DNA of 64,000 nucleotides from positions 18,567 to 82,566 of the forward strand of contig JAEOUH010000044.1 of the NCBI GenBank assembly GCA_016839365.1. The letters run 5' to 3'. The notes beneath the pieces are model-generated. The model was not told the origin of the DNA. It made no database searches and saw only the letters and a list, made by a program, of their open reading frames with translations. The stretch's first letter is position 1. Every line of letters begins with the position of its first letter. The position numbers and the translations under genes were made by a program. This DNA comes from Candidatus Hermodarchaeota archaeon. GTDB lineage: Archaea; Asgardarchaeota; Hermodarchaeia; Hermodarchaeales; Hermodarchaeaceae. This document shows positions 4,023 to 45,068 of the stretch, piece after piece.

Positions 4023-4152
4023 AAGAAAACGCCTACACTCTTCCTTTTATATTTTGGTCAGACATGCCAGAGAATGAAAACACCGGTACAAAAAGGTCTC
4101 GAATTAGCCTTTTTGCAGCTACAAAAAAAGGGGCATATTATTGAAAATGGGG

Positions 4153-4536
4153 TCATGGAGTCTTCCCGATTTTGTCAACAGCAGAACGGAGACTTCTAAT
4201 AATAAGCCCCAGACTTGGAGCCGCATCCTTACCGGCGATGGCAACAACCATTGTCTTTGAGGCAGTTACGGCCACGGTATAACCCTTATCTGTTTCCAGA
4301 TACATCGATTGCACGGGGCCTTGGTCGACAGCTTTGCTTACAGTTTTTGTTTCCTTCAACAGAGCAGCAATACTTGAAGTAATCGCATTATGGTCCATTT
4401 CGCGCAGAGTTTGTCCTGCAACAACTTTCCCTGTCGGAGCGGCAGCGATTAGTCCCTCAAGTTCAGGGATAGTGTCCATGATTTCTGCAAGAATCTGTTC
4501 AACTTCTTTCTTTCCGAGCATGAAAGCCACACCCAT
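4153..4536 (-). CDS. Roadblock/LC7 domain protein (MglB-like)
   Basis: 127 aa. The pattern LIAAAPTGKVVAG...VQSMYLETDKGYTVAVTASKTMVVAIAG matches the roadblock fold. It lies next to three further roadblock genes and an MglA-like GTPase. Confidence 0.7.
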   Translation of the reverse strand: MGVAFMLGKKEVEQILAEIMDTIPELEGLIAAAPTGKVVAGQTLREMDHNAITSSIAALLKETKTVSKAVDQGPVQSMYLETDKGYTVAVTASKTMVVAIAGKDAAPSLGLIIRSLRSAVDKIGKTP

Positions 4537-4709
4537 CGCCAGTGGAACTTGGCAATTGTGGTTGCGATAAAAAGGATTTAGTGTCCTTGTTTAAAAACTG
4601 TCCGTCAGAAAGGTATAGGCGACAGATTTTTTCAAAACTTCGATATTAACTCCGAACAAGAGGGAACTTTTATAACTTCAATAAGAGACCACTAGTCAGT
4701 GGCTAGAGA

Positions 4710-5009
4710 GTGTGGAGTACAATGATTGGCGGAAAAGCGTTAAAAGACTCGCTCAAGCGTCTCGGAGCCCACGAGGGTGTTCGTGGCGTCATAATCACTA
4801 ACATGGAAGGCCTTCCAATCAGCTCCAATCTAAACGCAGAAAAAACTGAGGTCATTGCAGCGCTTGTCACTTCACTGGTAGGTAAGGCTAAACGTGTTGT
4901 CGATGAACTTGGAGAAGGCGGCATGAACTTTCTTACCATCTCAACACCAGCAGGTGAGGTCATGGTCGCCCCCGAAGAGGACTATATTCTCATCGTCATG
5001 CGAGGTTGA
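4710..5009 (+). CDS. Roadblock/LC7 domain protein (MglB-like)
   Basis: 99 aa. Classic roadblock sequence: [19 protein letters not shown]...[26 protein letters not shown]. Confidence 0.8.
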
Positions 5010-5089
5010 GAATCCCAGATACCCCACACAAGAATTAAAAGTCATCTCTCGAAGATAAGCTCGGCTAGCCTCATGGAAAGGGATGAACC

Positions 5090-5560
5090 GTGTCCATAAC
5101 CGTACGGCAATTTGATGAGATCCTCTCCGATGTCATCAAATCCGAACCAGGAATCAAGAAGACCATTCTCGTAGACAGAACAGGACTAACCATTGCTCAT
5201 GTCTCGAAATTCTCATATTATCCAGTGGACGTTGATGGTATTGGCGCCATTGCTAGCGCTGTGTTTTGTGCAAGCGAGGAACAAGGAAAGAGCCTTGACG
5301 TGGGCGATTTGACTATTGTTACATCGGAATTTGGTGATGGCAAGATCTTTGCTGCTGGTGCTGGCAAAGGTGTATTATGCGTGATTACAGATAAAGAAGT
5401 AAACATTGGCATGATACGCTTAACAATGATGAAGGCGGCTGCTGAGCTCGCGAAAGTTTTAGATGAGTTCATGGCCGAAAAGCCTGCCGTCGCAGCCGGT
5501 AAAACTGATGCGGAGCGGGAAGAGCTTAAGGCCGCATTGGGAGAACTCGAGAAGGGTTAG
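5090..5560 (+). CDS. Roadblock/LC7 domain protein with a C-terminal helical extension
   Basis: 156 aa. The roadblock core reads TGLTIAHVSKF...LTIVTSEFGDGKIFAAGAGKGVLCVITDKE. A charged helical tail follows (AEREELKAALGELEKG), as seen in MglB. Confidence 0.7.
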   Translation: MSITVRQFDEILSDVIKSEPGIKKTILVDRTGLTIAHVSKFSYYPVDVDGIGAIASAVFCASEEQGKSLDVGDLTIVTSEFGDGKIFAAGAGKGVLCVITDKEVNIGMIRLTMMKAAAELAKVLDEFMAEKPAVAAGKTDAEREELKAALGELEKG

Positions 5561-5606
5561 TGGGGACGGGATATCGCAACGCGAATAAGGAAGGAGCCGT
5601 CCTACT

Positions 5607-6194
5607 TTGAAGAAAGACACACAGGGAAGAATACATTTCAAAATCGTCTTCTGGGGCCCCTCATTATCAGGAAAAACAACAGCACTCCGTTGGATTTATG
5701 ATAATGTTGAGGGATTGAGTAAAGGAGGGTTCACATCGGTCGCCGATCATACCGGCCGAACACTCTTTTTTGATTATACGCCAATGCAAGCTACCGCACA
5801 GGTAGTATTTGATGTTTACACCGTTGCTGGCCAACGTCGACATCGAGGTCAACGAAAGGTCATCTTGAGTGGTGTTGATGGCATTATTTATGTTGCAGAC
5901 TCGTCACCCGATCAAATGGAAGCCAATATTGAAAGTATGTCTGAGCTTCGTTCTTTTGTGGGTGAAGAACTCGGTCATTCCATTAGCCTTGTTGTAATGT
6001 TAAATAAACAGGACCTGCCAAATGCTATGGAAAAAAATGTCATGCTTGCAAAGCTGGGGCTAGGCAATGCGCCAAATTTTACGACCTGTGCACTAACAGG
6101 TGAAAATGTTAAACGCGCGTTTAGACAGATAACTCGCGATATCTTGATGTACCATTTGTACCCTAAGACTCCTGCAACAGCTTCAGCGAGTTAG
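5607..6194 (+). CDS. mglA: MglA-like small GTPase (Ras superfamily)
   Basis: 195 aa. P-loop is GPSLSGKTT. Switch region RTLFFDY. G3 reads YTVAGQ, with Thr in place of Asp, the diagnostic MglA TxxGQ form. ILSGVDGIIYVADSS follows. G4 is NKQD. Confidence 0.85.
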   Translation: MKKDTQGRIHFKIVFWGPSLSGKTTALRWIYDNVEGLSKGGFTSVADHTGRTLFFDYTPMQATAQVVFDVYTVAGQRRHRGQRKVILSGVDGIIYVADSSPDQMEANIESMSELRSFVGEELGHSISLVVMLNKQDLPNAMEKNVMLAKLGLGNAPNFTTCALTGENVKRAFRQITRDILMYHLYPKTPATASAS

Positions 6195-6201
6195 ATTAAA
6201 A

Positions 6202-6585
6202 TTGATGATACCCAGTTCTCCTGAAATTGAAAAGATATTGGAGAGCCTTACTGAGTCAGTTGAAGAGATTGAAGCGGCAGTCGTTGTGGGTGTTGATGGG
6301 CTACCCATTGCTGCAAAGCTTCCAGAAGAATATGATGAAACATTACTCGCCGCAATGAGTGCCGCCTTGCTTACCGTAGGAGAACGCGCGGCTTCGGATT
6401 TAGGTAAAGGCGCATTAAGCCAAGTTTTCGCTCAGGGAAGTACCGGAGCAGTAATCATGGTTGCAGCTGGACCGGATTCGGTTTTAATGGTGAGCACAAA
6501 CACAGAAACCCTTGCTGGGCTTGGACTAGTTTTTATTAATATGGAACGCGCAGCAAAGAAAATTGCTAAGAAGTTGAACCGATAA
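6202..6585 (+). CDS. Roadblock/LC7 domain protein (MglB-like)
   Basis: 127 aa. AAVVVGVDGLPIAAKL...GSTGAVIMVAAGPDSVLMVSTN. Starts 7 nt after the GTPase gene. Confidence 0.75.
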   Translation: MMIPSSPEIEKILESLTESVEEIEAAVVVGVDGLPIAAKLPEEYDETLLAAMSAALLTVGERAASDLGKGALSQVFAQGSTGAVIMVAAGPDSVLMVSTNTETLAGLGLVFINMERAAKKIAKKLNR

Positions 6586-6648: not shown

Positions 6649-7422
6649 TTGTTGGTGACCAATCTAATCGGACCTATCTATCACTTATATTCCTGGTATC
6701 TTTGGCACCAAATTAAGGACAAGCCAATGCCAATGCATGTAGGTATAATTTTAGACGGGAACCGCCGGTACGCAAAAGAACAAAGCCAAGATAGTAGCTT
6801 TGGGCACACAGTAGGGGCACACCGTATTGATGAAGTGCTCGACTGGTGTTTTGAAGCAGGAGTTAAGGTCGTTACTATTTACGTCTTTTCTACAGAAAAT
6901 TTCTCACGCAAGGAAGAAGAAGTCAAACATATTATGGAGCTAGCCCGTCAAAGATTTGAAACTGTAGCTCAATCAGAAGTTGTCCACCGCCATAAAGTAC
7001 GAGTTCGCGCGATTGGGCAGCTTACTCTACTTCCCCCCTCAGTTCTCACAGCGATTAAAGAAGCAGAGGATATCACAGAAGGATATGATAATTTCCAATT
7101 GAATGTGGCAATAGGCTATGGTGGTCGAACAGAGATAGTTGATGCTGTGAGAAGTATTGCAGTGAAGGTCAGCAAAGGCGCACTGGAGCCCTCTGAGATT
7201 TCAGATGAAACCATAGAAAAACACCTCTACACTGCAGGGATTGCAGATCCTGAGTTGATTATTCGAACATCGGGAGAGGAAAGATTGTCAGGATTTCTAT
7301 TATGGCAATCAGCATATTCGGAGCTTTATTTCGCTGATGTTTACTGGCCAGAAATTCGGAAGATTGATTTTTGGCGAGCGTTACGTACGTACCAGCGAAG
7401 AGATCGGCGATTTGGTAACTAG
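6649..7422 (+). CDS. uppS: Undecaprenyl/di-trans,poly-cis-polyprenyl diphosphate synthase. The true start is probably the ATG at 6727.
   Basis: MPMHVGIILDGNRRYAKE is the substrate-binding motif. Further motifs: VTIYVFSTENFSR, ERLSGFLLWQSAYSELYF and the RRFG tail. Confidence 0.85.
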   Translation: MLVTNLIGPIYHLYSWYLWHQIKDKPMPMHVGIILDGNRRYAKEQSQDSSFGHTVGAHRIDEVLDWCFEAGVKVVTIYVFSTENFSRKEEEVKHIMELARQRFETVAQSEVVHRHKVRVRAIGQLTLLPPSVLTAIKEAEDITEGYDNFQLNVAIGYGGRTEIVDAVRSIAVKVSKGALEPSEISDETIEKHLYTAGIADPELIIRTSGEERLSGFLLWQSAYSELYFADVYWPEIRKIDFWRALRTYQRRDRRFGN

Positions 7423-7434
7423 GAGAATTTAGAG

Positions 7435-7851
7435 ATGAAGGGTAAGAAGCCCGCAATGGCGCTATTGGTTGATAGTAGTATTTCATCCGGTCTTTTAGAG
7501 ACACTATCTAAACTTCGACCAATCTTAGACGAAATGGGTGATATAAAGATAGGTAAGGTGGTAGTTCGTCAACAGGAGGCTGTAGAATTTTCTAAGATTA
7601 TTGCTCAAGAAGGCTTTATTCCTGTTATCATCCACGATGACCTCGACATACATTTGGTTCTTGAAACCATGGAACTCATTTATAATGAAAAAATCGAAAC
7701 GCTTGCCATAGCAACAGAAAATGTGAATCTCCTTTTATTGTTAAGCCGTGCAAGGGAGTTAGGAAAGGAAGTAATTTTGCTTTACACGTCGGATAAGGTA
7801 AACAGAGGTTTGCAGAACGCTGCAGATATTGTACTTCCAATCACTCATTGA
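7435..7851 (+). CDS. NYN/LabA-like domain protein (uncharacterised)
   Basis: 138 aa. Layout: LLVDSS...PVIIHDDLDIHLVLE...TLAIATENVNLLLLLSRARELGKEVILL. This resembles the PIN-like NYN/LabA arrangement. Confidence 0.4.
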   Translation: MKGKKPAMALLVDSSISSGLLETLSKLRPILDEMGDIKIGKVVVRQQEAVEFSKIIAQEGFIPVIIHDDLDIHLVLETMELIYNEKIETLAIATENVNLLLLLSRARELGKEVILLYTSDKVNRGLQNAADIVLPITH

Positions 7852-7857
7852 TATCCG

Positions 7858-8727
7858 TTAAAGTAATCCACGTTTCATAAGAAGCGTGAATTCTTCCATC
7901 GTGAGCCGTTCCCCACGTTTGTGTTTTTCGAGAGCCACAGCCGCCTTTTCCTCTAGTCGCTCTTCGAGTTCTTGGATTTTTTCCACTCGCCGTCGTATAC
8001 GTATCTCGCCTAGCTCCTTCCTTAGCCGGTTGTTCTTTTGTTTGGACTCAATATATCGACGATGAGTCTCATCAGCTTCGCGCCGTGTTTCGAGATATTG
8101 TCGATGTGATTCATCAGCCTTTTTTCGAAGAGCATCGACTTCGGCATATGCTTCAATCATGAGCTGGTTTTCTTCTTGAGATAATCGAGCAAACTCGAGA
8201 ACTGAATTATGGTGCGCATTCATCAACAGTCGTAAATCATCGATTTCAGTTCGAGCTTTCGCACTCTCTTTACGCTGTTCTGCAGCTTCTTCAGCAGTCT
8301 TGAGTTCGGATTCTAGCTCTGCTATTTGATCAATGATTTCGCGTTCACGCTTCAAATCTAACACTTGGGTTTGAAGAGACCAGTCGAGCTCACGGATTTT
8401 TCGGCGAAGGACATGAACCGGGGTTGCCGGTTTCCTTTTTTCTTCTTCAGGTTCATTTTCGTTGTCTTGTCGCTCATCGATCTTATCTTTAAGTGTGGCG
8501 TGAATTTCGTCCCGTTTTATTTTGAACTCGGCAACCTTTTGATTATATTCGTCACGTTTTTCACGGTGGTCACGAGCCTTCTTCAGCCACTCGGCAACTT
8601 GTGCGTTGAGTTTGTCCCTTTCCTTGACTAACTGTTGAGCTGTAGTGTTTAGCTCATCACGCTTCTCACGCAAAGAAGCTGTAAGCCGATTAGTTTCAGC
8701 GAGTTGCAAGACCGTGTCCTCGGCCAC
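7858..8727 (-). CDS. Archaeal coiled-coil protein (COG1340-like)
   Basis: 289 aa, almost entirely charged heptad-repeat sequence with no enzymatic motif. Confidence 0.5.
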   Translation of the reverse strand: MAEDTVLQLAETNRLTASLREKRDELNTTAQQLVKERDKLNAQVAEWLKKARDHREKRDEYNQKVAEFKIKRDEIHATLKDKIDERQDNENEPEEEKRKPATPVHVLRRKIRELDWSLQTQVLDLKREREIIDQIAELESELKTAEEAAEQRKESAKARTEIDDLRLLMNAHHNSVLEFARLSQEENQLMIEAYAEVDALRKKADESHRQYLETRREADETHRRYIESKQKNNRLRKELGEIRIRRRVEKIQELEERLEEKAAVALEKHKRGERLTMEEFTLLMKRGLL

Positions 8728-8863
8728 GATACCACCTTGTACAAGAAAACGTCTAACGTGATTTCCTGAGTGTGAGGGTGTATGGAAGAGGGATTTTTAA
8801 AACTAACGGAGCTTTACACTGACCGAAGGGCAGTCACAATACAAAACATCAAGACTATTGAGA

Positions 8864-9568
8864 TTAATTGGATTCTTCCAAAATTATCCGAGCATCTACA
8901 CATTTCGCACCTTTAGAATAGGAAAAGACAGGATTCAAATCGAGTTGATTAATAGATGGGTAATCTGTCACTAACTTCGAGACCTTAAGCAGAATATCCA
9001 CTAACGCGCCTGTATCCCGTGGCTCTTGTCCTCTTACACCTGTCAAAATGGGGTAACCTTTGATTTCTTGAAGCATTTCCTGGGCATCATATTTTGTTAT
9101 TGGGGCAACGCGGAAACTTACGTCCTTGAGTACTTCAACAAAGATGCCACCTAAACCAAACATTAACGCAGGACCAAATTGAGGGTCCTTTATAGCCCCT
9201 ATAATAACCTCAACACCCGCTGGGGCGAACTCTTCCACAAATATTCCCCTTATTCGTGCTTTTTCCACATGCTTCTTAACATTTGATATGATAGATTGGT
9301 AACCTTCACGAACAGCATCTGCATCCTTGACATTAACGATTACGCCTCCGACATCGCTTTTGTGAATAACATCGGGACTTAATATCTTGAGAACAACGGG
9401 ATAGCCTATTGTATCAGCTGCTTTCACGGCTTCGTCTTCGGTTTCAGCTATTTTGAATTGGGTTACGGGGAGCTTGTAGGTTTGAATAATGGTCTTTGAT
9501 TCGTGTTCGAGCAAATATGTTCGATTTTCCGTTCGAGCACGTGCAATGATGTCATCAATTTTTGGCAT
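8864..9568 (-). CDS. acdB: Acetyl-CoA synthetase (ADP-forming) beta subunit / ATP-grasp domain
   Basis: 234 aa. GYPVVLKILSPDVIHKSDVGGV, PQFGPALMFGLGGIFVEVLKDVSFR and LDLNPVF are typical of the ACD beta subunit. Confidence 0.8.
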   Translation of the reverse strand: MPKIDDIIARARTENRTYLLEHESKTIIQTYKLPVTQFKIAETEDEAVKAADTIGYPVVLKILSPDVIHKSDVGGVIVNVKDADAVREGYQSIISNVKKHVEKARIRGIFVEEFAPAGVEVIIGAIKDPQFGPALMFGLGGIFVEVLKDVSFRVAPITKYDAQEMLQEIKGYPILTGVRGQEPRDTGALVDILLKVSKLVTDYPSINQLDLNPVFSYSKGAKCVDARIILEESN

Positions 9569-9631
9569 CTAGTTCACCGGGTTTTTGATAAATCGAGATT
9601 TGTCAAATTAAAACCTTTTAGTAAAACAAGT

Positions 9632-10399
9632 TTATCGAAATAGTTCAAAGCCTTCTCCACCAGTTAAAATATTCGAAATATGGGAGAATAACAGGTCAAG
9701 ATTTTCCATATTCAAAGCAGACAAAGGAACCAAATCGAGACCTGAAAAAATTGTTTGGATAGTAGTAACCAGTTCACTTGATAGTTCGATTTGTAACTCG
9801 TTGCGTGTTTGTTGGAGATCATAGATTAGTTGATCACTATCATTGAGCCATTCAGTCAATCGTTCACTATCGCCTTTATCCAGTAGATCTGTTCGAGATA
9901 GTACATTGAGTTGAGGGAGATGAAATCGAACCAGTACTGATGCAGCGAGCAGAAGAGAGGAAATGAGCCCTGCTGGTGTTTTTGCTAATGCGGCATCTAC
10001 TAAGTAGATGAGCATTCGACTTTCTTTAGCTAGACTTGAGACAATTATTGGTCCGGTTTCACGGAATGCAAACAACTCGATTTGTCCTGGTGTATCAAAG
10101 AGTAGAAAATCAACACCTAGGTCCCTGATTTCCTCTTGTAGTGTCTCTAAATGAGAACTTATGAGATCAATCGCTGCAATTAATCCTCCATTGGGCCCTA
10201 AATTGTATTTTTCCATAACTCCTTGGAGTGAGATAAAGTCACGAACATCGATGTCAGGGCCATATGGAAGGTGTAACACGCCAGGATCCAGATTAACAAT
10301 ACCAACGCTTAATTTAGCATCGCGTAACCATTGTGCAAGGCTATTCGTAAGCGTTGATTTCCCAGAACCTGCAGTTCCGACGAAGTAAAGCGCGTGCAA
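9632..10399 (-). CDS. GPN-loop GTPase
   Basis: 255 aa. Walker A is GTAGSGKSTL. The eponymous GPNGG motif is present. LLFDTPGQIE. Confidence 0.85.
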   Translation of the reverse strand: MHALYFVGTAGSGKSTLTNSLAQWLRDAKLSVGIVNLDPGVLHLPYGPDIDVRDFISLQGVMEKYNLGPNGGLIAAIDLISSHLETLQEEIRDLGVDFLLFDTPGQIELFAFRETGPIIVSSLAKESRMLIYLVDAALAKTPAGLISSLLLAASVLVRFHLPQLNVLSRTDLLDKGDSERLTEWLNDSDQLIYDLQQTRNELQIELSSELVTTIQTIFSGLDLVPLSALNMENLDLLFSHISNILTGGEGFELFR

Positions 10400-19023: not shown

Positions 19024-19539
19024 ATGAGTGTACAACAACGACAATACGTACTCAAAGTGTGTGTCGTAGGTGATGGAGCTGTAGGCAAAACCAGCCTCAT
19101 CATCCGCTATACCGAGGGACATTTTCGAGAGTCCTACATAATGACTGTTGGTACGTCTTTTGCAGTGAAAGAGTTGGATTTCGGAGATACATTGGTGCGC
19201 TTACAGTTGTGGGACTTAGCTGGACAGCCACACTTCAGTTCTGTTCGTCCCGTTTTTTACCGTGGCGCTGCTGGTATTATTTTAGTTTTTGATAGCTCTC
19301 GTCGTCAGACATTTGATAATATACCACAGTGGTATACAGAGGTGTCACAGGTAACGGGTGTTGTTCCGACAGTGTTGATAGCAAATAAGGTGGATTTAGT
19401 GGATCAACGTCAAACTTCAACCGAGGAGTCTATGGAATACGCAAAACAATTGGGATGGGGGTATTTTGAGACCAGCGCCAAAGAAGGGCAAGGTGTGACA
19501 GAAGCCTTTCGACAAATCGCTTGGTCGTGTATCAACTAG
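19024..19539 (+). CDS. Rab-like small GTPase (Ras superfamily)
   Basis: 171 aa. G1 GDGAVGKTS. G2 YIMTVGTSF. G3 WDLAGQ. G4 NKVD. G5 ETSAKEG. Confidence 0.8.
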   Translation: MSVQQRQYVLKVCVVGDGAVGKTSLIIRYTEGHFRESYIMTVGTSFAVKELDFGDTLVRLQLWDLAGQPHFSSVRPVFYRGAAGIILVFDSSRRQTFDNIPQWYTEVSQVTGVVPTVLIANKVDLVDQRQTSTEESMEYAKQLGWGYFETSAKEGQGVTEAFRQIAWSCIN

Positions 19540-25236: not shown

Positions 25237-25818
25237 GTGGATTTATTACTTGCAATTTTAACCATGGTATTCGTTTTCTTTCTCTTGCTAACTGCAGCGA
25301 TCAAAGATTATCAGACAAGAGAAGTATCCAATTGGATTTGGTTAATCGGGTTGTTTGGCCTGCCCTTCACGATTTATCGGGTTGGAACAACAGGTTTGTG
25401 GTTGTTGTTTGGTTTCCAAGCAGTATTGGTATTTTTCCTTGTGATAGCTAGTTTCCGACTTGGTTTTCTTGGCGGAGCAGACGGAAAAGCCATACTCATA
25501 ATCTCGTTGCTCTATCCTTGGATATTATTAGATCCAGTCTGGCTTTTAATCGCACCATTCGTCGTTTTATTTGGTGGATTTCTATTAGTGGGAATACATA
25601 GCATATGGCTTCTGTTACAGAACAGATTGGCCTGGAACCTCATATCCCGCAATGAAGAACGAGCACAAAAACCAGAGAGGAAGATATTTTGGTTCACACG
25701 GCGATTTTCTCCTTCACTGATTGAAAATAATCAGTGGAGGCAAGTTGAGGTCCCACTGGTTAGCTACATCTTCTTGGTTTACACTATTTTGGTGATTCTA
25801 ACAAGTGTATTCCTATGA
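25237..25818 (+). CDS. A24-family prepilin/preflagellin peptidase (PibD/FlaK-like)
   Basis: 193 aa polytopic membrane protein. The first catalytic Asp lies in AIKDYQTREV and the second in GGADGKAIL (GxGDxK-type). Confidence 0.7.
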   Translation: MDLLLAILTMVFVFFLLLTAAIKDYQTREVSNWIWLIGLFGLPFTIYRVGTTGLWLLFGFQAVLVFFLVIASFRLGFLGGADGKAILIISLLYPWILLDPVWLLIAPFVVLFGGFLLVGIHSIWLLLQNRLAWNLISRNEERAQKPERKIFWFTRRFSPSLIENNQWRQVEVPLVSYIFLVYTILVILTSVFL

Positions 25819-44308: not shown

Positions 44309-44680
44309 CTACATGAATCCTCCAATGTTTGCTGACGCTTTAGCAATTTCAACGTAGGCGCCCTGCACATCCCCCTGAGGAGATACATAAGCTATGACAT
44401 AGCCCTTGTCCCGCGCGGCAGTGATTACAATCGACCCTTGCCCACGAACATTTGTGGCAACCAGGTGATGGTCTGTTGCTTGGATTGTGCTATACTTCAC
44501 ACCCTGGATTGTAATACTAGGTGGTTTACTTTGGACTGCTGAAAGAATTTCTGCGCCTGTGATTGTCCAGTTTGGAGTCGTGAATAGAACAGTTCCGTCC
44601 TTTCTGATGACTGAGACAGCCATGATTGTATTGTCGACTTGTTGCATGTAGTTGACCCATGCTTGTATATTTTCAGACAT
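44309..44680 (-). CDS. Profilin-like protein. The start is moved to the internal ATG at 44680.
   Basis: 123 aa beginning MSENIQAWVNYM. The C-terminal GVKYSTIQATDHHLVATNVRGQGSIVITAARDKGYVIAYV parallels eukaryotic profilin [38 protein letters not shown]. The upstream extension overlaps the DUF167 gene on the other strand. Confidence 0.6.
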   Translation of the reverse strand: MSENIQAWVNYMQQVDNTIMAVSVIRKDGTVLFTTPNWTITGAEILSAVQSKPPSITIQGVKYSTIQATDHHLVATNVRGQGSIVITAARDKGYVIAYVSPQGDVQGAYVEIAKASANIGGFM

Positions 44681-44762
44681 TTTTGTGCCTACACCTCTCA
44701 CTGCCAGATTGTATTTGGAATAATGATACATTTTTGAAATCGGTACTAAAAGGTTCTGTTGG

Positions 44763-45068
44763 ATGTCAATGATTGAGTTGCATAATAAGGGAACCTTACT
44801 GAGAATACAAGTCAAACCTCGATCGAAAAAAGAAGTAATCACAATCACTGAAAACGAGCTTTGTGAAGTTTATGTCAAAGCGCCGCCAACACGGGGTCAA
44901 GCTAACTTAGCCGTTGTCAAACTTATCGCGAAGAAGTTAGGCATCCAAGCTAATCGCGTTCGAATAATTTCTGGGGAAAAGACTCCAAACAAAGTACTGC
45001 TTATTGAAAACATGACTCCAGATTTATTCACTAAGGCATTGCGAAAGGTTGAAGTTCCTTTTAAATAG
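44763..45068 (+). CDS. DUF167/YggU-family protein
   Basis: 101 aa. LRIQVKPRSKKEVITI...VYVKAPPTRGQANLAVVKLIAKKLGI...VRIISGEKTPNKVLLI. Confidence 0.7.
   Translation: MSMIELHNKGTLLRIQVKPRSKKEVITITENELCEVYVKAPPTRGQANLAVVKLIAKKLGIQANRVRIISGEKTPNKVLLIENMTPDLFTKALRKVEVPFK

Follow-up and report, generated by a model that had tools for sequence, protein, structure and literature searches.

Which roadblock protein regulates which small GTPase in Asgard archaea is a question that gene order rarely helps to answer: Asgard GTPase and roadblock genes are mostly scattered, so that partners are not guessable from their neighborhoods (PMC10933270; bioRxiv 10.1101/2020.10.19.343400), and in strain MK-D1 GTPase and roadblock genes generally do not share operons (PMC10933270). 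Small GTPases and their roadblock/longin regulators organise membranes, polarity and nutrient signaling in eukaryotes, and their origin is an open question of eukaryogenesis. An exception to the scatter is a five-gene cluster at positions 4153-6585 of a 64-kb stretch (hereafter the window) of contig JAEOUH010000044.1 from Candidatus Hermodarchaeota archaeon, in which one GTPase gene is accompanied by four candidate partners, three of them with close crystallised Asgard relatives. The region is best read, with a probability of about 0.7, as an Asgard version of the MglA/MglB small-GTPase switch known from bacteria, extended by three extra roadblock proteins. The genes are as follows.

4153-4536, minus strand: rb1, full-length Roadblock/LC7 protein, 127 aa, divergent from the other four genes
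4722-5009, plus strand: rb2, short RBLC7-type roadblock, 95 aa, its frame open from GTG 4710
5090-5560, plus strand: rb3, MglB/LAMTOR2-3-like roadblock by Pfam, Protein Data Bank (PDB) and Foldseek searches, 156 aa
5607-6194, plus strand: mglA, MglA-family small GTPase by PDB sequence search and structure model, 195 aa, TTG start
6202-6585, plus strand: rb4, full-length Roadblock/LC7 protein, 127 aa, starting 7 nt past the mglA stop codon

An earlier note, made from the sequence alone, had reported four roadblock genes and one GTPase gene at these positions, and the six-frame list of open reading frames (ORFs) agrees; the intergenic gaps it gave are also correct (rb2-rb3, 80 nt; rb3-mglA, 46 nt; mglA-rb4, 7 nt).

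What kind of GTPase is encoded here is answered by both sequence and structure searches, which place MglA first, as the note had proposed. In the PDB sequence search, Thermus thermophilus MglA was matched at E 1.5e-34 and Myxococcus xanthus MglA at 3e-33, with the best Arf at 2.9e-11, and the protein is 40% identical to both of these MglA proteins. An AlphaFold 2 (AF2) model built on 40 homologs is a single G domain with a predicted local distance difference test score (pLDDT) of 87. When this model was compared with the PDB by Foldseek, the top 14 matches were all MglA (E 4e-20 to 2e-16; template modeling score, TM, 0.79-0.85), and Arf matches begin at 6e-12. Membership of another family, such as Arf or the signal recognition particle receptor subunit beta (SRbeta), had been named as the outcome that would speak against MglA; sequence and fold both favor MglA.

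Family databases name the protein differently. The Pfam scan returned G-domain families only, the best being generic Arf (54.5 bits), followed by Gtr1_RagA (25 bits), and returned no MglA-named family; NCBIfam gave a generic small_GTP match alone, under its cutoff. Public names of the homologs are 'ADP-ribosylation factor-like protein' and 'signal recognition particle receptor subunit beta'. These Pfam and NCBIfam results were set aside, because no MglA-named family stood in the scan and the direct comparison with MglA is far stronger.

The motifs of the GTPase, aligned with M. xanthus MglA, are the following; motif counts refer to the 120 closest cluster representatives among its homologs.

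5655-5681, plus strand: P-loop, G17-P-S-L-S-G-K-T-T25, aligned with M. xanthus MglA
5757-5762, plus strand: switch I Arg51-Thr52, aligned with Arg53 (the intrinsic arginine finger) and Thr54 of M. xanthus MglA
5820-5834, plus strand: G3/switch II, T72-V-A-G-Q76, followed by x-R78-H79; Gln76 is the catalytic glutamine
6003-6014, plus strand: G4 guanine-specificity motif, N133-K-Q-D136, with N, K and D in 120/120 homologs

The G3 motif thus reads TVAGQ as had been noted, with Thr in place of the Ras Asp. The claim of a residue-by-residue alignment with MglA stands from the P-loop to switch I, where there are no gaps, but not throughout, as a deletion of 4 residues relative to both bacterial MglA proteins, the one indel close to the switches, shortens the beta2-beta3 hairpin. 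Arg51 is Arg in 115 of the 120 homologs and Phe or Leu in five, and Thr52 is Thr in all 120. In the extended G3 motif T-x-A-G-Q-x-R-H, residues T72, A74, G75, Q76, R78 and H79 are unchanged in 120/120. The spacing from the G1 Lys to the G2 Thr is 29 residues in both the window GTPase and M. xanthus MglA; it is 19 in H-Ras and 18 in Arf1. Ser19 (window 5661-5663) is the counterpart of Gly12 in Ras and of Gly21 in M. xanthus MglA, and this position is Ser in 112, Thr in seven, Ala in one and Gly in none of the 120. Substitutions of Gly12 in Ras impair hydrolysis assisted by a GTPase-activating protein (GAP).

These features can be set against the published description of the family. MglA proteins are single-domain proteins of ~150-240 aa, and are called coupled when an MglB/roadblock homolog lies within four genes (PMC4316618); the window protein has 195 aa, with rb3 46 nt upstream and rb4 7 nt downstream. 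Group 1 MglA, regarded as bacterial, is defined by an intrinsic G2 arginine and a TVPGQ G3 motif (Wuichet and Sogaard-Andersen; PMC4316618), and an insertion between G1 and G2 has been described as peculiar to bacterial MglA (PMC4316618). The window GTPase has the arginine (R51-T52 aligned with R53-T54 of M. xanthus), the G3 Thr and catalytic Gln (each in 120/120), the residues of this motif whose function is discussed, and the insertion, which aligns without gaps with both T. thermophilus and M. xanthus MglA. It departs from Group 1 at the G3 Pro, which is Ala in 120/120 close homologs.

An exhaustive search of protein representatives clustered at 50% identity shows where the protein belongs. 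The top score, 402 bits, is followed by a handful of relatives at 205-152 bits, the named ones being archaeal (including a Korarchaeota metagenome-assembled genome, MAG, and MK-D1), and from ~129 bits down by a large cloud of proteins, many of 300-700 aa, mostly with the bacterial signature G/A-R-TxPGQ. Of the 150 cluster representatives compared, most carry TxPGQ, mainly the more distant ones. This drop in score and change of signature indicate a discrete archaeal subtype of Group-1-like MglA, to which the window GTPase belongs.

Some members of this wider family have additional features. In the Borrarchaeal locus L020 (4144-4731) and in locus L023 (5001-5591), Leu or Phe stands in place of the arginine finger, although the full five-gene cluster is kept; to judge from these substitutions, either catalysis must differ there or the arginine must be supplied in trans. 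Two archaeal-type relatives, P0241 (248 aa) and P0243 (289 aa, Thorarchaeota), have basic N-terminal extensions of 60-100 residues, e.g., MGLLSRIRNRWKRRK, which resemble membrane-binding amphipathic N-termini. In most TxPGQ-type MglA-domain representatives (P0248-P0389; ~40% identity), the G domain is N-terminal and is followed by a long uncharacterised extension, the whole protein measuring 300-700 aa. Fusion of GTPase and roadblock domains (a 'Rosetta stone') was considered as support for an interaction and rejected, as the longer MglA relatives (P0241, P0243, P0248 and others) gave no Pfam roadblock match; their extensions are basic or of low complexity.

The four neighbors of the GTPase are indeed all roadblock proteins. 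Each passes the Pfam Robl_LC7 (PF03259) gathering score of 23 bits, with rb1 marginal (24.8 bits) and rb2, rb3 and rb4 scoring 69.6, 40.9 and 57.2 bits. Their description as paralogs does not hold in the sense of a recent origin: in profile-profile comparisons the four families match one another with probabilities of 89-97.5% at 20-28% identity, and each has one best-matching ortholog in every related locus. On this sequence evidence, the four are ancient distinct families rather than recent paralogs. A longin-like component, which had also been suggested, was not found; Pfam scans of the four proteins gave no longin family at E up to 0.1, and the rb3 model has an N-terminal helix (H5-18), which longin topology lacks.

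Family profiles built from the cluster orthologs and searched against the PDB assign each protein further. The rb1 profile matches 9JQ8, a 'Roadblock/LC7 domain protein', at 2.6e-23, which secures the roadblock assignment despite the marginal Pfam score. One-to-one rb1 orthologs of 35-72% identity occur in Hermod-, Jord-, Frey- and Borrarchaeal loci and in L023, and in Baldrarchaeia a divergent Robl_LC7 gene is located at the rb1 position. The rb4 profile matches Thor-RB (7F8M, 3.9e-29), MK-D1 Roadblock3 (9JUE, 1.2e-27) and CvnB5 (3LEQ, 2e-16). Thor-RB and Roadblock3, like the rb2 relative Odin-RBLC7, are homodimers in crystals.

Of the four, rb2 is the closest to the eukaryotic dynein light chain roadblock. 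Searched alone, the rb2 sequence matches 7F8F at 2.1e-29 (~68% identity) and, along the whole length, Drosophila Robl and human DYNLRB1 at 1e-16 (~40% identity). The rb2 profile finds 7F8F at 1.5e-38 and dynein light chain roadblock at ~1e-23 (7e-24), with 0.5 for the best LAMTOR; the Pfam LAMTOR5 score is 24.6 bits, under the cutoff of 27. 7F8F, a chain of 94 aa, most probably corresponds to Odin-RBLC7, which Tran et al. (PMC10933270) describe as a short roadblock without a C-terminal helix. In keeping with DYNLRB/LC7 architecture, rb2 has 95 aa, high similarity and an ortholog, 7F8F, that lacks the C-helix.

For rb3, the gene directly upstream of mglA, the searches point to both MglB and LAMTOR proteins. 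As a single sequence, its best PDB match is T. thermophilus MglB (3T1R, 3e-6), which covers residues 10-149 and so runs past the roadblock core; its Pfam MAPKK1_Int (LAMTOR3) score is 29.6 bits, above the cutoff of 25. The family profile matches 9JUE (2.4e-5), MglB (3e-5) and LAMTOR2 (3e-3), with no close solved relative, and Foldseek matches of the AF2 model are about equal for LAMTOR2 (4.3e-7), MglB (4.5e-7) and MK-D1 Roadblock3 (5.1e-7). The model (pLDDT 72.5) has a full roadblock fold, a disordered linker at residues 131-138 and an extra helix at 140-155, in the order helix, two strands, helix, three strands, helix, linker, helix H140-155. The extra helix is located as follows.

5507-5554, plus strand: rb3 C-terminal helix, residues 140-155, EELxAALxELEK, from the AF2 model, in which pLDDT is <50 at residues 131-138

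The one roadblock with a C-terminal helical extension mentioned in the earlier note is thus rb3, and the helix is conserved from Hermod- to Heimdall-, Thor- and Odinarchaeal proteins. In nine sequences from different phyla, L146, A148, A149, L150, E152, L153 and E154 are invariant, and the linker (residues 130-139) differs in length and sequence. An extra C-terminal helix of this kind characterises M. xanthus MglB (its Ct-helix).

Also, rb3 is the most conserved protein of the cluster. Its identity across Asgard phyla is 62-83%, compared with 49-82% for MglA, and the alignment of the nine sequences has 73 invariant columns. A database search found 453 relatives; the best 120 of the 453 are all at least 61% identical, and the named ones among them are almost all Asgard. 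That rb3 outstrips its presumed GTPase in conservation is unusual. Such conservation would fit a protein with several binding partners. Bacterial MglB proteins have little sequence conservation (PMC4316618).

How widely the arrangement is conserved was surveyed by scanning genomes with the GTPase, which gave 13 loci at 81-97% identity, in Hermodarchaeota or 'Promethearchaeota' MAGs, and Jord-, Frey- and Borrarchaeal loci at 52-61%. The divergent rb1 followed by rb2-rb3-mglA-rb4, with one-to-one orthologs, is found in 13 Hermod, four Jord, two Frey and one Borr loci, and the full array occurs also in L023 and in Baldrarchaeia, where the match with the window extends downstream to the prenyltransferase, NYN, ATP-grasp and GPN genes. 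Conservation in related genomes, which the note had named as a check, is thus borne out, and chance clustering is excluded by the recurrence of the arrangement in other phyla with one-to-one orthologs. rb3 is directly upstream of mglA in 26/27 loci, MK-D1 being the exception, and an rb4 ortholog lies downstream of mglA in 25/27. Heimdall, Hodarchaeales and Thor loci have rb3-mglA and a downstream rb4, with a CRS1_YhbY gene between mglA and rb4 in Heimdall and Hodarchaeales; the Odin locus has rb3-mglA only. All five genes are under strong purifying selection, with ratios of nonsynonymous to synonymous substitution rates (dN/dS) of 0.005-0.07 against other Hermodarchaeota genomes (rb1, 0.067; rb2, 0.008-0.045; rb3, 0.005; mglA, 0.012-0.032; rb4, 0.027-0.062), values that cover only the pairs for which the ratio is computable, dS being saturated in several.

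How might these proteins work together? Judged by homology with MglA/MglB of T. thermophilus and M. xanthus, an rb3 dimer would bind one MglA-GTP over the switch regions and position Arg51 and Gln76, speeding GTP hydrolysis, with rb3 as the presumptive cognate GAP of this GTPase. The tethered helix of rb3 would provide a second contact, either on MglA, in the manner of the M. xanthus MglB Ct-helix, or in the groove left in rb2 by the absent C-helix. RBLC7-type roadblocks bind a partner helix in the groove of the missing C-helix, and Odin-RBLC7 has been proposed as a helix-binding site for larger complexes (Tran et al.; PMC10933270). Dimers of rb1, rb2 and rb4 would stack on, recruit or compete with rb3, as suggested by MglC-MglB and by the LAMTOR dimers, and the nucleotide state of MglA would control assembly of the roadblock platform at a defined cellular site. 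A precedent for GTPase-controlled stacking of roadblocks is MglC2:(MglB2)2, which its authors liken to Ragulator (PMC10329633). The cellular output is probably spatial or membrane-site control.

Several observations weigh against this reading of an extended MglA/MglB switch. rb3 scores only 29.2 bits on the NCBIfam MglB equivalog NF052242 (cutoff 200), and so is not an equivalog, and it is no closer to MglB than to LAMTOR2; its GAP role rests in consequence on family-level homology and gene order. An AlphaFold 3 (AF3) model of a Thorarchaeota MglA/MglB pair predicts no binding of the Ct-helix to the GTPase (PMC13408092). Ser19, together with loss of the arginine finger in 5/120 homologs, suggests that catalytic details may differ from those of bacterial MglA. 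Finally, the clusters in the Heimdall, Hodarchaeales, Thor and Odin loci examined have neither rb1 nor rb2, and the orphan MglA ortholog of MK-D1 (WP_147663266.1; 50% identity) lacks any roadblock gene within 10 kb, so that physical linkage of all four roadblocks is not obligatory. For the same reason, cultured MK-D1 was rejected as a model for the cluster.

The best-surviving alternative is that rb3 alone partners MglA, as a 1:2 pair, and that rb1, rb2 and rb4 serve other clients, whether non-GTPase proteins or further Asgard small GTPases (for instance the Rab-like protein encoded at 19024-19539), and are located nearby through inherited order or shared regulation. The rb3-mglA pair is indeed the invariant core, from which rb1 and rb2 can be missing and rb4 can be parted by CRS1_YhbY, as described above; Asgard genomes have many roadblock and GTPase families (bioRxiv 10.1101/2020.10.19.343400), and in crystals the close relatives of rb2 and rb4 form homodimers on their own. 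Yet the five-gene order is kept across lineages whose MglA is only ~49-60% identical to that of the window, and because such retention would otherwise be unusual, functional coupling is favored. The position of rb4 beside mglA in 25/27 loci, the absence of any other roadblock gene elsewhere in the 64-kb window and the very high conservation of rb3, which suggests several interfaces, likewise speak against an rb3-only partnership. It is possible, if on the unlikely side.

A bolder form of the extended switch, which we regard as speculative and rather unlikely, is that the five genes encode one layered, nucleotide-controlled platform, in which rb3 holds MglA, the rb3 helix lies in the rb2 groove and rb4 and rb1 add further layers, and that this platform is ancestral to dynein LC7 and LAMTOR-type scaffolds, with Group-1 chemistry already in the Asgard ancestor. 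If so, the Asgard MglA module would be the ancestral setting from which eukaryotes recruited LC7/roadblock and LAMTOR-type scaffolds.

That the cluster is a direct prokaryotic homolog or ancestor of Ragulator-Rag, with rb3 and rb4 as LAMTOR2/3, rb2 as LAMTOR4/5 and the GTPase as Rag, is improbable. Such an identity might be read from the Pfam LAMTOR3 score of rb3, the weak LAMTOR5 match of rb2, the presence of LAMTOR2 among the best structural matches of rb3 and the mixture of full-length and short roadblocks, which is found in Ragulator as well (PMC10933270). A Rag-type GTPase, a defining feature, is lacking, however: the GTPase here consists of one MglA domain and, unlike Rag, carries no C-terminal roadblock (Gtr1_RagA, 25 bits; Arf, 54; both far behind the MglA matches). 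Nor is there a LAMTOR1-like gene, or any conserved fifth non-roadblock gene, in the cluster, the part of the genome in which one was sought. Moreover, rb2 is far nearer to dynein LC7 (7e-24) than to any LAMTOR (0.5), the close relatives of rb2 and rb4 are homodimers rather than obligate heterodimers, and Rag-like GTPases exist separately in Asgard archaea (PMC10933270; bioRxiv 10.1101/2020.10.19.343400). The Ragulator-like assembly of the earlier note is thus not retained in that form; because the GTPase is not of the Rag type, the cluster has no LAMTOR1-like gene and the rb2 and rb4 relatives are homodimeric, a larger multi-roadblock assembly is put forward here as a hypothesis, by analogy. 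The last reading, that the GTPase is Arf-like or SRbeta-like and its roadblock neighbors regulate an Arf-type membrane switch, is very improbable, because, although Arf is the best Pfam family (54.5 bits) and NCBI and JGI annotations of homologs carry Arf-like or SRP receptor beta names, MglA is ahead of Arf by 23 orders of magnitude in sequence E and eight in structure E, and the protein has the intrinsic Arg, TxxGQ in place of DxxGQ and a G1-G2 spacing of 29 residues, compared with 18 in Arf, but neither an N-terminal amphipathic helix nor Gly2.

For an extended MglA/MglB switch, expression of the genes is also of interest. The control elements, read from the sequence and from an alignment of the rb1/rb2 spacer in the window and 10 Hermod loci, are as follows.

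4123-4129, minus strand: putative rb1 terminator, a T7 run 24 nt beyond the rb1 stop codon
4537-4721, between the divergent genes, no strand: rb1/rb2 control region, 185 bp, inferred from the aligned intergenic regions
4590-4597, minus strand: TATA-like box for rb1, conserved among Hermod loci
4668-4675, plus strand: TATA-like box for rb2, TTTTATAA, ~47 nt upstream of the rb2 ATG, conserved among Hermod loci
4712-4717, plus strand: GTGGAG, ribosome-binding-like motif before rb2, from the intergenic alignment

The two TATA-like boxes face opposite directions and are conserved in Hermod genomes, and we infer that they would act as promoters. Oligo-T runs are an established archaeal termination signal. 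Shine-Dalgarno-like motifs are present ahead of rb2, rb3 and mglA, the TTG start codon of mglA directly following AGGAAGGAG. In Hermod alignments, the conserved start of rb2 is ATG 4722, which gives 95 aa, not GTG 4710; rb4 may start at ATG 6205 instead of 6202. It is plausible that rb1 is monocistronic and that rb2-rb3-mglA-rb4 form one polycistronic unit; co-expression of the cluster would be in line with the short gaps between the genes, with the Shine-Dalgarno-like motifs and with the conserved TATA-like elements that face opposite ways. Downstream of rb4 (window 6649-10399) follow genes for a prenyltransferase, NYN, (DUF7121), ATP-grasp_5 and a GPN-loop GTPase, in an order common to Hermod and Baldr loci (L027, 6044-10591). 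In Baldr, only 17 nt separate rb4 from the prenyltransferase start, so that the transcription unit may reach past rb4 into the prenyltransferase and NYN genes.

The surroundings are a housekeeping chromosomal region, with genes for SMC, cis-prenyltransferase, NYN, GPN-loop GTPase, NurA/HerA, NucS, RIO2 and NFACT. The window has 173 ORFs of 60 aa or more, and no further roadblock ORF was found among them. A second small GTPase is encoded at 19024-19539 (plus strand; 171 aa; Ras/Rab-like; Pfam Ras 170 bits, Roc 108 bits); it has weak MglA similarity (phmmer 1e-6), is unrelated to the MglA cluster and has no adjoining roadblock gene. At 44309-44848 (minus strand) lies a profilin-like ORF of 179 aa with a ~60-residue N-terminal extension (Pfam Profilin 27.2 bits; cutoff 25). 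The Rab/Ras-like GTPase and the profilin-like gene are typical Asgard eukaryotic-signature genes.

Other loci have peculiarities of their own. In Heimdall, Thor and Hodarchaeales loci (L021, 3367-4212; L022, 3516-4343; L026, 3367-4212), a prepilin/preflagellin-peptidase-like gene (Peptidase_A24/Arc_PepC_II) lies directly upstream of rb3-mglA on the same strand; a Pilin_N protein is encoded nearby in L023, and the window has a Peptidase_A24 gene at 25237-25818, 19 kb away. Bacterial MglA regulates type IV pilus machinery, and these neighbors give a weak hint of a link between the cluster and pilus-like machinery of this type. In the MK-D1 locus (L025; Promethearchaeum syntrophicum, CP042905.2, 1814983-1835600), ParE-toxin genes flank MglA, and Band_7 and ESCRT-II-like EAP30 genes lie 1-3 kb downstream. 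The rb3 frame is split into two ORFs of 106 and 99 aa in one Hermod-related MAG (L009, 5284-5954), which is probably a frameshift or assembly error, and a Freyarchaeota contig (L019, 182-2489) has ~1.5 kb between rb2 and rb3, compared with ~160 nt in related loci, which suggests an insertion into the cluster.

How much of this was known? The claim that the arrangement had not been characterised in archaea needs to be narrowed. Structures have been solved of an rb2 ortholog and of close Asgard homologs of rb1 and rb4 (9JQ8, 7F8F, 7F8M, 9JUE), 'MglA bacterial-like GTPases' of MK-D1 were noted by Tran et al. (PMC10933270), and AF3 models of the Thorarchaeota MglA/MglB pair were published in 2026 (PMC13408092). 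What stands is that the searchable literature, to which many subscription articles and the final Nature version of Liu et al. (2021) did not belong, contained neither biochemistry of an archaeal MglA-roadblock complex nor a four-roadblock array. A literature search for papers on PDB 9JUE or 9JQ8 gave nothing relevant. The survey by Wuichet and Sogaard-Andersen reports no Group 1 member from archaea, and never more than two MglB genes for one MglA (PMC4316618). The preprint of Liu et al. lists three roadblock/longin and two small-GTPase families in the Asgard core, and its main text does not describe the neighborhood of the cluster (bioRxiv 10.1101/2020.10.19.343400). Four points appear to be new: the conserved four-roadblock array with one-to-one orthologs, a dynein-LC7-like protein within a roadblock array, the extreme conservation of rb3 and the definition of an archaeal MglA subtype. 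The coupling of roadblock and MglA-family GTPase genes in prokaryotes, archaea included, is said to have been described already by Koonin and Aravind in 2000.

The cluster is thus a good experimental entry point rather than a surprise. Because it names candidate partners, experiments on recombinant proteins can ask directly whether Asgard roadblocks regulate GTPases and whether they form multi-layer platforms. MglA of the Group 1 type, hitherto regarded as a bacterial innovation, is found widely among Asgard archaea and also in a Korarchaeota MAG, and the closest archaeal relative of dynein light chain roadblock is encoded inside a presumed GTPase-regulator operon.

Among known systems, the closest is bacterial MglA/MglB (T. 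thermophilus 3T12/3T1Q; M. xanthus 6IZW/6H5B), with which the cluster shares 40% identity and the fold of the GTPase (TM ~0.8), the switch-I Arg, the Thr-x-x-Gly-Gln G3 motif, the long G1-G2 spacer, a roadblock gene immediately upstream and a regulator with an extra C-terminal helix, as in M. xanthus MglB. Unlike bacterial MglA, the GTPase has Ser, never Gly, at the Ras-Gly12 position, Ala for Pro in G3 followed by an invariant Arg-His, and a beta2-beta3 hairpin shorter by 4 residues; rb3 is no MglB equivalog (29 bits; cutoff 200) and is far more conserved than reported for MglB proteins, and four roadblock genes are linked here, not one or two.

In the M. xanthus RomR/MglC/MglB system, several roadblock dimers serve one MglA, and nucleotide state controls the roadblock-roadblock contact (PMC10329633), which resembles the proposed mechanism; orthology to MglC is established for none of rb1, rb2 and rb4, and no homologs of RomR, RomX or RomY were seen in the cluster. 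Actinobacterial conservons (CvnA-D) likewise combine a roadblock, CvnB, and an MglA-family GTPase, CvnD, in one operon, and the rb4 family matches CvnB5, but their GTPases belong to Group 2, with GTPGQ and no intrinsic Arg, and they include a sensor kinase and CvnC, which are absent here. Like Ragulator (LAMTOR1-5)/Rag, the cluster would provide a small-GTPase platform of full-length and short roadblocks; there are three full-length and one short roadblock, compared with two and two in Ragulator, and the GTPase has no roadblock domain.

The crystallised Asgard roadblocks cover three of the four families, with rb2 ~68% identical to Odin-RBLC7 (7F8F), 7F8M and 9JUE in the rb4 family and 9JQ8 in the rb1 family; the PDB matches included no rb3-family structure and no archaeal MglA. 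Odin-RBLC7, Thor-RB, MK-D1 RB (7YH1), Roadblock3 and 9JQ8 were studied singly, unlike the linked proteins of the cluster. DYNLRB1/2, LC7 and Robl of the dynein light chain family resemble rb2 in length (95 aa), in an architecture without the C-terminal helix and in sequence (~40% identity). Archaea are not known to have dynein. In contrast to dynein LC7, rb2 is encoded within a GTPase-regulator cluster, and this location fits the proposal, reportedly made by Koonin and Aravind in 2000, that LC7 derives from regulators of NTPases.

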